From Lingula anatina (taxonomy: Eukaryota > Animalia > Brachiopoda), in NCBI GenBank assembly GCA_051362555.1, contig CM120648.1, positions 16,488,587 through 16,552,586 of the forward strand: 64,000 bases of DNA. The letters are read 5' to 3'. The notes beneath the pieces are model-generated. The model saw only the letters and a program-made list of their open reading frames with translations, made no database searches and was not told where the DNA came from. The first letter of the stretch is position 1. The number at the start of each line of letters is the position of its first letter. Positions 2,492 to 23,039 of this stretch are shown piece by piece. The position numbers and the translations under genes are program-made.

Positions 2492-3111
2492 GTCACTTTT
2501 CAGAGGAAATCAATAGACAAGACCCATTACTGCAAGAAGCATATCAACGAGCATGTAAGGATGGCTTTGAAAGAGTGAAGAGGGCAAGGGTGATGCTGCT
2601 GGGCCATTACGGCGCAGGTAAAACACACCTGAGAAAGAGGCTTCTCGGAAAGGAATATGATGAAGTTAAAGATCCAATCACTAATGGTATAGAAACCGAC
2701 TACGTTCTTGTAAAGGAGGGTTGGAATTCAGATGAAGCTGGTAAGAATAATTGTTGTTCTGCAGAGAGAAAAAAATCAATATCAAAACTTGTTTATTGCA
2801 TATATTTTTTTTAATAATTTCTTGAAGATGTATTAGTATACAGGGACTTTTTTTAATTTCTCCTTTTTTATTATTTATATATAGTTACCTTAATACAGCA
2901 GCATTTTCTCCTTGTTTATCATTTATTCGGTGCCTTTGAAGATAAATATTATTATGTATTTCATGACAAATAGTTAAACGCTGCTTTGATTTATAGACAG
3001 TCATGGGCCAGCAATATCACGTTTGCTTGCTGTTAACATGAGAAAAATACATGAGGAAATCCTGGCAAGTCATGCAGGTAATTCGTATTTATTTACACCT
3101 AAATAGTGTAA

Positions 3112-3153
<42 letters not shown>

Positions 3154-20500: not shown

Positions 20501-23039
20501 AACATTTGATGAATCGCTGCATGTAAGTTTCAGCATAAACTGTAAAGAAAATAAAGAAAATTCAGTTTCATTAGTTGGTGCCAAGCTAAGCATTCACGGT
20601 GAGCAATCCAATGCATCAATGACTTGTTTTTTAATTAATGTTCATGATGTGATTTATCTGCTGACAGTTATCCACTATCTTGTTTCAGTACATCGTCACT
20701 AAGAATCAGCTGGAAAGAAGAATTCTGTGGTTGTCAGTCTGGCACAGTGTCAAATTTGGCCACAATAAATTACTGGGTGAGGTCCTTTTGCCTCTTAATA
20801 AACAGAACTTCGGTGACACCTCTCCACAGTGGTTCCAGCTATCAGGAGTAAGTTGAAAAAGTTACAGTAGTATTCAAAACAATATTTAAAGTCGATTAAG
20901 AAAGCAGGTTGAAGCATTTATATTGGAGAAAAAGTAAGATATTTATTTCAGTAACGGCGGTGTAGAACATAAAGGTTTGCTTTTCAAATGATGTAAGATT
21001 GCCAGGCAGCTGCTGAATGATTGATGGAAACAGATGAAGTTTGCTCTTGGAGCATGACATGTCACATTGAATTTAATTTTTAAAATGACTTTCTGCCAAG
21101 GCATATAAAACCTGCAGAAAATGCAATATAATTTTAGTCATGTTAACATCAAATTGATATTTTATTGTGTTTATTTATTTTGTGAATCCCCACTTTTTCC
21201 TGCAAAACAGGATCATATGGCTGCTGGGGATCGAGACCAAGCCGTTACTAATGTCACTGACCCTCACAGCATCAAAACAACGAGAGGCCAAGTTCTAAAC
21301 CAGGCTGATGTGGGCAACCAGTGGCAAAGGTCAACGTTATTGGAGACATCATTAGAACCCAACTTTGGCAACCAGCAGGATGACTTCCAGTCCCAGATAA
21401 CAAGGAAGATGGTTGCACAGGAACAATACCACCAAAATCAGCCTAGGATTAAATCAACCATTGGCAACCAGCAGGATTACTTCCAGTCTGAAACAGCAAG
21501 AAAGATGGTTGTACGAGGCAAATACCAACCAAATCCACCATCATCACTATCCAACTTTGACAATCAAAGGTTACAAGAAGGCAATTTCCAGTCTCAGACA
21601 CTTCCCGGTGGATCAATAGGAAGATATCAGCGTTATCATCAAGAAGGACAATTACAGGATAGCATACTACCTCAGGGGCCAATCACTGGCCACCGCCTGG
21701 AGGAACAAGGTGGAGACCACTTTCAGACAAGGAGGAAATCAGGCCATGAGTTTCCATATATACCTCAACAACAGGACCCTGTGGCTACTGGGGATCAAGA
21801 CCAGAGTGTTACTGACCCTCAAACCATCAGAACAATGGGAAACGAAGCTCTTAACCAGGCCCATGGGGATAACCAGTTAGAAAGGTTACCTACGGCAGTG
21901 ACACATGGGGTTCTAAGACAGATCCCCGCTAACACAGGCAACACACATATTACATATTACAATTTTCAGCAGGTTTACAATTACACCGGTACCTCAGATA
22001 AGGAATCAATGCTACAAATGAAAGAGAAAGATGTGACAGCGTCATTTAATAAACATGTCTCTCCAAAAGTAAAAAAACGGTTGAATGAGACACTTTCTCA
22101 AGATGATGTATGGGACCAAGTGAAGAAGATGTATGGCATTCCAGATGAAACCCCACGTCCTCCCGATTTTGTGTCTTCTTTGTTGTCTCAAGTCAATGGT
22201 TCTATTGCATCATTCATCACTGTGTTGTTAAAGTTAAAAGAACACCTCAGAGAAGGTCAGAGAGACATTCTACAGGACTTGATTGGTGAAGTCAAGGTAA
22301 TTTATCATTTGTTCACATAAAGATTAATCTTTTAAGATTCAAAATGACTATTCATTTTTTGACTCCAGTATTTTTTACAATTTACTTCACATTAGAAATA
22401 TTTCCTTTCTATGTAGTATCTTGCTTTTACCCATCAGCAATGTTTTTTTTTTTTTTTTTTTCATATATCAGGTACAAGAATATCAACTAGAAATAATTGT
22501 ATGAGACAGTGGGTTGGCTGTTTGGGATTATTAAGTGAATTGTTTGTTGTTTACACAACGTCATGGTTTGAATGAATAGAAGTTGTAAATAAATGTGACC
22601 TATTATATTTCTCTTCTAGAAAGGACTTATGAGTGAAATGGAGTACAACAAGCTGAGAGAGAAAGTGATTGACTTTGCTGAGGAACTTTCGATTCATATA
22701 GAAAGAATTTTAGATCACCTGTATCAGTTTAGTATAATACCAGATGAGGAGACAACAAAGATTAAAAATGATGCAAAGAGAAATCCACAAGAAGCTAGTA
22801 GAGATTTGTTCAAAGTACTCCTTGCAACCAGCCCTAAAAAAGAACCAATAAAACATTTGAAAGCTGCATTCAGGGATTTTGGTCTTTGTCATCTGGCAGA
22901 TAAACTAGAATTCAGCTACCAGGATGTAGAGGAAGAGCTACAGAAACAAGGAGGCTCTTCTAGTGAAGAGCCGTTGGCGATAGGAATGGCAGCTCCCCCC
23001 ACACCTGCTACAGGTGAAAACCCTATTGGACCACATTAA
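2492..23039 (+). CDS. Multi-exon kinase-less Roco protein A: ROC-COR-ZU5-UPA-Q-rich-C2-Q-rich-death-like-CARD (5' part not identified in window)
   Basis: Phase-consistent GT-AG exons: 2492-2740, 2997-3077, 3307-3354, 7714-7770, 8344-8400, 10480-10554, 11194-11481, 11898-12037, 12189-13406, 13577-13625, 14584-15269, 15606-15785, 15990-16178, 16606-16923, 20044-20228, 20420-20522, 20689-20847, 21211-22296, 22620-23039 (TAA). ROC motifs [30 protein letters not shown] motifs [29 protein letters not shown]. Confidence 0.85.
4428..5434. mobile_element. Non-autonomous MULE-like element
   Basis: Inverted termini with GGACAATTCCCCCC subrepeats; 9-bp TSD GTTAATAAG / GTTGATAAG (one mismatch). Confidence 0.75.
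4931..5213. mobile_element. MITE nested in the MULE-like element
   Basis: TIR CCCGCACGAAAATGCAATAG versus CTACTGCGTTTTCTTGCGGG; CTA on both flanks. Confidence 0.65.
5660..6420. repeat. Degenerate dispersed subrepeat region (GAGACGAGAAGG(G/C)AATTT-like motifs)
   Basis: The motif recurs several times with GATCG and CAAGCGA neighbours; the region is absent from the paralog B intron. Confidence 0.5.
6634..6845. mobile_element. PIF/Harbinger-like MITE, copy 1
   Basis: GGGTGCATTCCCA terminus with TTA/TAA flanks; similar copy at 53539-53747. Confidence 0.65.
8596..10400. mobile_element. Intronic insertion rich in TTGCAAC/GTCGC subrepeats (non-autonomous DNA element, possibly composite)
   Basis: Absent at the homologous paralog B site (~53335 AAAGATGCACAC); many GTTGCA/TGCAACC motifs; AGCCTGGGTCACAC start at ~8659. 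Confidence 0.6.
14584..16178 (+). CDS. ZU5-UPA module of Roco A (3 exons)
   Basis: [24 protein letters not shown]...[24 protein letters not shown] is the UNC5-type ZU5 signature. The following beta-rich segment ([10 protein letters not shown]...LMVCCVNDT...) fits UPA. Confidence 0.85.
18517..19879 (+). mobile_element. Degenerate Tc1/mariner transposon in an intron of Roco A
   Basis: 28-bp TIRs ACACACTGGACAATAGAAGTGTCACCCC at 18518-45 and 19851-78; TA at both flanks; transposase remnants [43 protein letters not shown] with stops and frameshifts. Confidence 0.93.
20044..20847 (+). CDS. Synaptotagmin-like protein (Slp4/5, bitesize) C2A-type domain; 3 exons inside Roco A
   Basis: [11 protein letters not shown]...[86 protein letters not shown]...PQWFQL; enters and exits in phase 0. 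Confidence 0.88.
22620..23039 (+). CDS. Terminal exon of Roco A: CARD (death-fold) domain
   Basis: [40 protein letters not shown]...[12 protein letters not shown]...[18 protein letters not shown] matches the six-helix CARD pattern. Confidence 0.75.
   Translation, partial: KGLMSEMEYNKLREKVIDFAEELSIHIERILDHLYQFSIIPDEETTKIKNDAKRNPQEASRDLFKVLLATSPKKEPIKHLKAAFRDFGLCHLADKLEFSYQDVEEELQKQGGSSSEEPLAIGMAAPPTPATGENPIGPH

Follow-up and report, generated by a model that had tools for sequence, protein, structure and literature searches.

An exon chain in the genome of the brachiopod Lingula anatina raises two questions, namely whether the modules that lie side by side there belong to one protein, and whether a Roco GTPase can be the switch of a death-fold platform. 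The chain occupies positions 2492-23039 of the plus strand in a window of 64,000 nucleotides, the term window denoting the whole stretch analysed (assembly GCA_051362555.1, contig CM120648.1, positions 16,488,587 to 16,552,586). A preliminary description had read the chain as a kinase-less Roco protein with ZU5-UPA, C2, death-domain-like and CARD modules, in which ROC-COR plays the part that NACHT has in NLRP1. On balance, the sequence comparisons reported here make it probable that the chain specifies a single modular protein, which belongs to a Lingula gene family shaped by exon shuffling and is likely a cytosolic trigger that leads from danger to cell death.

Assembled anew from splice signals and from alignments to homologues, both manually and by script, the 19 phase-compatible exons proposed earlier join into one open frame of 1,861 amino acids, with AG at all 19 acceptors, GT at all 18 donors and a stop codon at 23037-23039 (Table 1); the GC content of the window is 36%. 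The domain order that had been claimed was recovered by Pfam matches together with predicted structures and runs from ROC, COR, ZU5 and UPA through a Q/P-rich linker, C2 and a Q-rich linker to a death fold and CARD. Exon 1 opens in phase 1 behind an acceptor, and no coding sequence that resembles a family protein was found in bases 1-2491, so the real first exon either precedes the window or has been lost. This absent exon had been overlooked, as had the NHL that likely forms the N-terminus (see below) and a tandem copy at 49.9-58.3 kb. Because the model has no 5' end, the term kinase-less is limited to the part after ROC: the 1,861 visible residues contain no kinase domain, the 5' end lies outside the window, and close copies carry NHL at the N-terminus beyond it.

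The chain was compared with 172 database proteins, designated here by P-numbers (P0001, P0002 and so on), among which RefSeq models of L. anatina are the closest named ones, with 88% identity over the COR exon. Of the 18 junctions, 16 are spanned by at least one of 18 database proteins tested, a junction being counted as spanned where at least 5 identities occur within 14 residues on either side, and because database proteins cross them the chain is not due to chance. The two unspanned junctions (4|5 and 5|6) flank exon 5 and have neither protein nor read support. The L. anatina models tile the chain: P0002 covers NHL-ROC-COR, P0001, P0017 and P0019 cover ROC-COR-ZU5-UPA, P0028 extends from the end of UPA over the first Q-rich linker, C2 and the second Q-rich linker into the death fold, and P0020, P0021, P0022 and P0023 connect the death fold to CARD, while P0079 runs across UPA, death fold and CARD. 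P0001 and P0020 are encoded at the neighbouring loci LOC106157231 and LOC106157230. Five models (P0001, P0002, P0016, P0017 and P0028) terminate by read-through of a donor that is used in the window gene, which suggests split or truncated annotation.

Reads of six same-label RNA runs were aligned, with exons 1-3 outside the coverage, and show 6 of the 18 junctions (7|8, 8|9, 15|16, 16|17, 17|18 and 18|19). Position 11481 is joined to 11898 (7|8) by 41 reads and 12037 to 12189 (8|9) by 57 reads in two rows; the joints 15|16, 16|17 and 17|18 have 63, 29 and 24 reads, and the joint from 22296 to 22620 (18|19), which connects the death fold to CARD, has 74 reads in two main rows. Coverage is concentrated on the exons and leaves the introns almost bare, and the stranded runs place transcription on the plus strand. 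Most reads are 85-95% alike to the window copy; they establish splicing in the family, not expression of the window copy itself. For the single transcript presumed earlier, this means that a real spliced gene family is confirmed, with C2, death-fold and CARD joints in close copies, whereas no listed joint links the ROC-COR half to C2.

In ROC (Pfam Roc, expectation value E 5.3e-8), the P-loop GHYGAGKT (2602-2625), the switch-I Thr within TNGI in exon 1, the G3 motif WDFGGQ (11325-11342), which follows the WDFxGQ pattern of Roco proteins, and the G4 motif THKD (11996-12007) are all intact. Between switch I and G3, an insertion of ~130 residues is contributed by five small exons, two of which (exons 4 and 5, 57 bp each) are duplicates. 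As in Roco proteins, COR sits directly behind ROC and comprises COR-A (Pfam E 4e-16) and COR-B; the latter has no Pfam match and was found by a local profile built iteratively from nine COR-B segments that Pfam lists, in part under its cut-off (E 1e-8; 34.9 bits vs at most 3.0 in 200 shuffles). Between the window gene and the tandem copy, dN/dS over ROC-COR is 0.26 (bootstrap 0.19-0.36, 658 codons), a ratio which indicates that ROC-COR is under purifying selection. By the features examined, the window protein is a Roco. Dimers of ROC-COR are established, and human Roco proteins function in vesicle traffic (PMC4104024; this and all further literature is cited for the portions of text that were accessible).

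ZU5 is detected by Pfam (E 3e-20), and its sequence matches are ZO-1, UNC5B and ankyrins, whereas UPA has no Pfam match and its assignment rests on predicted structure. The structure compared is the predicted model of the close copy P0001, which is 90% identical to the window protein over exon 11 and 75% over UPA. This model matches UNC5B (Foldseek E 7.5e-18; similarity score Z 19.9, root-mean-square deviation 4.6, 266 aligned residues, 23% identity), ankyrin-B (Z 14.9) and CARD8 (Z 14.6), and the FIIND of NLRP1 was also matched. The ZU5-UPA unit of the preliminary description is upheld by the P0001 model, which folds like UNC5B and like the FIIND of NLRP1/CARD8.

Cleavage falls just before the last ZU5 strand, and its nucleophile can be Ser, Thr or Cys (PMC3210808). 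The SF/S cleavage motif of NLRP1/CARD8 is absent from the window protein, and at the equivalent position there is QF/C, which is chemically compatible; the aligned stretch stops at the Phe of this motif (model residue F151), opposite NLRP1 residue 1212 (6x6c_E, Z 8.3), the end of the cleaved N-fragment of NLRP1. The pair F-C is kept in the window copy, P0001, P0003, P0015, P0017, P0018, P0019 and P0029; in P0164, a distant relative, HF/T stands at this position. In Nup98, replacement of His by Gln at -2 hardly affects cleavage (PMC3210808). An N-S acyl shift may let ZU5 cut itself at QF/C, for which we see slightly less than an even chance. P0164, which lacks ROC and carries N-terminal C2HC zinc fingers, is the best candidate for a cleavage assay.

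The C2 domain (Pfam E 4.5e-6 on one exon) is of the Slp type, the best PDB match of the C2 of copy P0028 being human Slp4 C2A (3fdw, E 7e-32). In synaptotagmin-1 the Ca2+ site consists of five aspartates, of which the window C2 keeps two in an alignment with 3fdw and 2r83. The Slp4 residues K398, K405, R407, K410, R411, K412 and K416, which belong to the lysine cluster described as binding phosphatidylinositol 4,5-bisphosphate (PIP2; PMC7857503), are all kept, and the domain thus combines the two traits of a Slp-type C2A, the PIP2 lysine cluster and incomplete Ca2+-binding aspartates. From this combination, binding to acidic membranes without Ca2+ is predicted. Exons 15-17 form a phase 0-0 cassette, C2-less family members exist (P0036 and P0079), and by local profiles a C2 match is limited to P0027 and P0028 among the 172 proteins. 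In P0027 of L. anatina, which is possibly a chimeric gene model, the C2-Q cassette is fused to an inhibitor of apoptosis protein (IAP) with three BIR, UBA and RING domains; the accessible part of PMC13159474 records one IAP with a C2.

Ahead of the cassette, an internal duplication relates 15243-15632 to 16897-17265 and 16264-16474 to 17269-17463. The 3' end and donor of exon 14 stem from this old duplication, of which a dead copy of the exon 12 start also remains near 17239, and the duplicated exon 14 end is common to P0017, P0021 and P0029. Intron 14 contains a decayed Tc1/mariner-like element (18514-19882) with 32-bp terminal inverted repeats and remnants of helix-turn-helix and DDE_3 domains, and similar elements are abundant in the RNA reads. 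Skipping of C2 through a joint 16858>21357 (10 reads in run X4) was considered and rejected, both sides of the joint and the 34 letters between them being internal repeats of the Q-rich exon. In run X8, 15 reads exit the last C2 exon at position 20845 into other open sequence, which is likely the donor Slp gene or another paralogue.

The middle C-terminal domain (22024-22296) is predicted to form six helices (AlphaFold2, pLDDT 76.8, pTM 0.62). In VIA-align, death-fold chains fill 27 of the 29 top rows, one of them judged by chain range only, and the best row has Z 6.5, a deviation of 2.9 and 72 aligned residues; since Z values of such size can be common for helical bundles, as the tool warns, the evidence lies in the enrichment of rows and not in any single row. 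Pyrin domain (PYD) rows come first, with rows of death effector domains (DED) and death domains (DD) within ~1 Z unit. Neither Pfam nor a PDB sequence search matches the domain, and Atlas returned only unnamed clusters at 0.87. We tentatively regard the domain as a death fold with PYD, DED and DD chains tied, and the probable death domain placed earlier at ~22040-22296 therefore holds as a death fold by predicted structure and not as a DD proper. The terminal CARD has Pfam E 8.2e-5 (1.8e-4 in an earlier Pfam scan), and the CARD of copy P0023 exceeds the Pfam cut-off with 31.3 bits over two copies. Thus, both C-terminal death folds of the preliminary description persist, one by a weak structural match and the other by a near-cut-off Pfam CARD. 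Directly before the middle death fold, at ~21940-21985 (+), an alternating hydrophobic/N-Q motif is kept throughout the family, including distant members, and by eye we take it to resemble RHIM-type amyloid motifs; Pfam gives no RHIM match for it, and the RHIM core motif is absent.

The tandem copy has intact ROC-COR exons preceded by an NHL exon whose donor is in phase 1, which is the layout of P0002, and its COR has 86% nucleotide identity to that of the window gene. It is devoid of ZU5, C2 and the middle death fold, and its CARD exon is frameshifted. NHL precedes ROC in both P0002 and the tandem copy, and the missing first exon of the window gene likely encodes an NHL beta-propeller. Between the tandem copy and P0002, NHL is 75% identical and the ROC exons are 94-97% identical, and this stronger divergence of NHL is as expected of a variable sensor. 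Two further L. anatina proteins show other endings: P0019, possibly a chimeric gene model, joins ROC-COR-ZU5 to an EXS domain, and in P0004 the ROC-COR of the family ends in a domain that by eye resembles a trypsin-type serine protease and has no Pfam match.

An exhaustive search with P0001 yielded 5,041 representatives at E ≤0.001; 60 of the 150 listed, ranked by likeness to the Lingula protein, were scanned with Pfam, and 55 of these are ROC-COR proteins. Death, CARD or DED occurs in 28 of the 55 (one under the Pfam cut-off), caspase in 4 and a kinase in 1, and the sole ZU5 is in the same protein as the kinase (P0033, ROC-COR-kinase-ZU5); C2 or NHL was found by Pfam in none of the 55. Relatives also carry TIR or GT4 modules, and P0030, P0034, P0046, P0047, P0078 and P0081 are ROC-COR relatives with Bcl-2 plus caspase, caspase, Neuralized-Death-TIR, HEPN or OTU. 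Among the 172 proteins, a sample ranked by likeness to the Lingula protein, local profiles revealed no additional protein with both ROC-COR and ZU5 beyond the Lingula-like set, and a quick ROC-COR tree (49 of 52 rows, three having failed a length filter) groups the Lingula-like rows in a single long-branched clade (99). An immune or cell-death role would fit the Death, CARD, DED, caspase, TIR and GT4 modules of the relatives.

Kinase-less ROC-COR proteins with CARD or death domains have been described in Trichoplax (PMC4104024), exon-shuffled ROCO immune candidates in brown algae (PMC11378527), and effector-swapping AP-GTPase systems as well as modular immune expansions in brachiopods (PMC8195603). 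Our literature searches, with subscription journals and the supplements of PMC8195603 outside their reach, found no report of ROC-COR with ZU5-UPA-C2-death fold-CARD, in agreement with the earlier statement that this combination is unfamiliar among characterised proteins. Kinase-less Roco proteins with death folds are hence already known, and ZU5-UPA, C2 and two death folds after COR set the window protein apart from them.

With the Trichoplax-type kinase-less Rocos, the window protein shares the ROC insertion, COR-A plus COR-B, the lack of a kinase behind COR, a C-terminal death fold and exchangeable ends, but it adds ZU5-UPA, C2 and two death folds, and its N-terminus is likely NHL rather than LRR or ANK. 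The ZU5-UPA fold, Phe plus a nucleophile at the cleavage position and a terminal CARD are common to NLRP1/CARD8, whose FIIND shows just 6-11% sequence identity in structural alignments; in contrast to these proteins, the visible window protein is without NACHT, LRR and PYD, uses ROC as its nucleotide-binding module, has QF/C instead of SF/S, and separates UPA from CARD by ~620 residues that include C2 and a second death fold. PIDD1 (LRR-ZU5-ZU5-UPA-DD, PMC3210808) likewise has ZU5-UPA followed by a death fold and an HF/S-type position, whereas in the window protein a single ZU5 follows ROC-COR, no LRR is seen and a CARD is added. In the cytoplasmic module of UNC5B, ZU5-UPA is the best structural match, yet the visible window protein lacks an ectodomain and a membrane helix, has Phe-Cys for Leu and carries its death folds far from UPA. 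The C2A of Slp4/granuphilin provides the best PDB match, the PIP2 lysine cluster and the incomplete Ca2+ site, but in the window protein a single C2 stands outside a Rab-effector context, with neither SHD nor C2B. The window protein is not an NLR, PIDD or UNC5 member, and it may work like NLRP1.

A mechanism can be proposed from these parts. The missing NHL beta-propeller would be the variable sensor, and ROC-COR would couple sensing to a nucleotide-dependent dimer cycle (PMC4104024). A self-cut of ZU5 at QF/C would leave a UPA-C2-death fold-CARD piece that is held until freed, as in NLRP1/CARD8 (PMC11760013); alternatively, without a cut, the death folds would be clustered as the protein dimerises at the membrane. 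Through its C2, acquired from a Slp gene, the freed piece would attach to membranes with PIP2 or phosphatidylserine independently of Ca2+, and the death fold and CARD would then nucleate a platform for the CARD caspases of Lingula (caspase-Y) or for an adaptor. L. anatina has six caspase-Y CARD caspases and has lost caspase-2, and PIDD, ASC and TRADD were not detected in lophotrochozoans, as stated in the accessible part of PMC11463336; brachiopods have gasdermin E by homology (PMC11508797).

Several observations weigh against this reading. The first concern the place of ROC-COR: ZU5-UPA-death fold-CARD occurs without ROC-COR in P0077, P0122 and P0164, P0021 is an NHL-Q-death fold-CARD protein without ROC-COR or ZU5, and P0002 and the tandem copy consist of NHL-ROC-COR alone, without ZU5 or C2, although models of ROC-less or ZU5-less members may be incomplete. 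The existence of members without ROC-COR weakens the idea that ROC-COR is the switch driving the platform as NACHT is in NLRP1, and this part of the preliminary description finds no support in that form. Instead, ROC-COR looks like one swappable module, and the core of the family looks like ZU5-UPA-death fold-CARD, to which ROC-COR, NHL and C2 appear to have been added. Other observations concern the C-terminal half, in which the match of the middle death fold is weak (none at Z of at least 8 in VIA-align, and Foldseek blank), the window CARD reaches 23.0 bits, just under the Pfam cut-off of 23.9, and ~530 residues lie between UPA and the death folds, unlike the arrangement in NLRP1, CARD8, PIDD and UNC5B.

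With respect to self-cleavage, ZU5-UPA is structurally closest to UNC5B, for which self-cleavage is not known. Just one of five ZU5-UPA models is confident (pLDDT 74.6; the other four 40-45), P0077 and P0122 have NL/C at the cleavage position, and UNC5B itself has Leu at the position of the scissile Phe (PMC3210808). The same gene could have the same role in death signaling with no self-cleavage, ZU5-UPA being an UNC5B-like clamp or binding module and dimers of ROC-COR gathering the death folds at the membrane. This alternative, which we regard as rather unlikely, draws on the higher Z of UNC5B than of CARD8 (19.9 vs 14.6), on the lack of His at -2 (Q or K instead), on the two relatives with Leu for Phe, and on the presence of COR-B together with the established ROC-COR dimers (PMC4104024). 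However, it leaves aside the conservation of F-C at the exact cleavage position and the HF/T of a relative, the long linkers render a clamp of the UNC5B type between ZU5 and death domain geometrically loose, and ROC-less members exist.

With respect to the unity of the gene, the whole chain is present in no single database protein and is covered piecewise by the L. anatina models; just 12 of 2,529 reads over the part from C2 to CARD are 99% alike to the window copy, so the reads stem from other alleles or paralogues; and junctions 9-14, including that from the Q-linker to C2, are absent among the RNA joints listed (15 of 70 joints and 24 of 185 loose ends). The window copy might therefore not be a working full-length gene but be 5'-truncated, silent, or composed of two units (ROC-COR-ZU5-UPA and C2-death fold-CARD), as in the RefSeq loci LOC106157231 and LOC106157230. 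We consider this less likely again: the first exon is absent from the window, few reads closely match the window copy and none of those listed crosses exons 9-15, intron 14 bears a decayed Tc1-like element, the RefSeq models are in pieces and the tandem copy has lost its 3' modules, but the 1,861 codons are free of stops and frameshifts, dN/dS is 0.26, P0028 bridges UPA, Q-linker, C2 and death fold, P0079 connects UPA with death fold and CARD, and the five models that read through donors used here point to truncated models. Very unlikely, finally, is a scaffold of membrane traffic or the cytoskeleton, in which a Roco GTPase is held at membranes by a Slp-type C2 and by a ZU5 like those of ankyrin and ZO-1, and the death folds are mere docking sites, for although the ZU5 matches to ZO-1, UNC5B and ankyrins, the Slp type of C2 and the human Roco proteins in vesicle traffic (PMC4104024) agree with it, the many copies with exchanged modules, the rapidly changing NHL and the broken neighbour copy together display the immune-expansion pattern of sessile marine invertebrates (PMC8195603), and the relatives carry caspase, TIR, GT4 and HEPN modules.

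Elsewhere in the window, 14 other open reading frames have no Pfam match. An open exon at 26775-27383 (-) with a LamG-like domain (Pfam E 5e-17) is part of another gene, large inverted repeat pairs with remnants of transposon-like open reading frames lie at 32358-39167, a 480-bp palindromic element at 39661-40139 and arrays of short palindromic repeats at 58753-62673. A short hairpin element at 6650-6830 attracts very many RNA reads.

Table 1. Exons, domains and tandem copy of the ROC-COR gene in the window, with individual exon ends where several exons are combined
Feature	Position	Strand	Content	Basis or remark
Exon 1	2492-2740	+	ROC start with P-loop and switch-I Thr	96% identical to P0002
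Exons 2-6 (81, 48, 57, 57, 75 bp)	2997-10554	+	E/S/P/K-rich insertion in ROC	Exon ends 2997-3077, 3307-3354, 7714-7770, 8344-8400, 10480-10554
Exons 7-8	11194-12037	+	Remainder of ROC with G3 and G4	Pfam Roc, RNA joints; exon ends 11194-11481, 11898-12037
Exon 9	12189-13406	+	ROC end, COR-A 12408-12887, divergent COR-B ~12894-13385	
Exon 10 (49 bp)	13577-13625	+	Linker	Splice model, protein-spanned junctions
Exons 11-13	14584-16178	+	ZU5 ~14691-15161, UPA ~15162-16178	Exon ends 14584-15269, 15606-15785, 15990-16178
QF/C motif	15135-15143	+	Candidate self-cleavage site before last ZU5 strand	NLRP1 structural alignment
Exon 14	16606-16923	+	First Q/P-rich linker	3' end and donor from duplicated exon 11 end
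Exons 15-17	20044-20847	+	Slp-type C2A ~20092-20847	PDB match of copy P0028, RNA joints; exon ends 20044-20228, 20420-20522, 20689-20847
Exon 18 (21211-22296), 5' part	21211-22023	+	Second Q-rich linker with internal repeats	Sequence
Exon 18, 3' part	22024-22296	+	Six-helix domain, putative death fold	Predicted structure
Exon 19	22620-23039	+	CARD ~22641-22919, short tail, stop	Pfam CARD, RNA joint
Tandem paralogue	49908-58300	+	NHL exon 49908-50844, ROC-COR 51806-56419, CARD exon ~57930-58300	

The component parts of this protein and the broad theme are already known. At its boldest, the reading would be that Lingula built a family of NLRP1-like self-cleaving inflammasomes independently of vertebrates, with NHL and ROC-COR in place of NACHT-LRR, a Cys-based ZU5 cut that frees a membrane-docking UPA-C2-death fold-CARD piece, an ASC-like tandem of death folds, and a role as the missing activator of caspase-Y; as a whole, we hold this to be improbable. 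The family bears on two questions, whether a death-fold platform may have a Roco GTPase as its switch, and whether self-cleavage is possible for a ZU5 with Phe-Cys. For the biology of Lingula, the ZU5-UPA/death fold/CARD family, whose members may or may not include ROC-COR, C2 and NHL, provides a candidate activator for the expanded caspase-Y.

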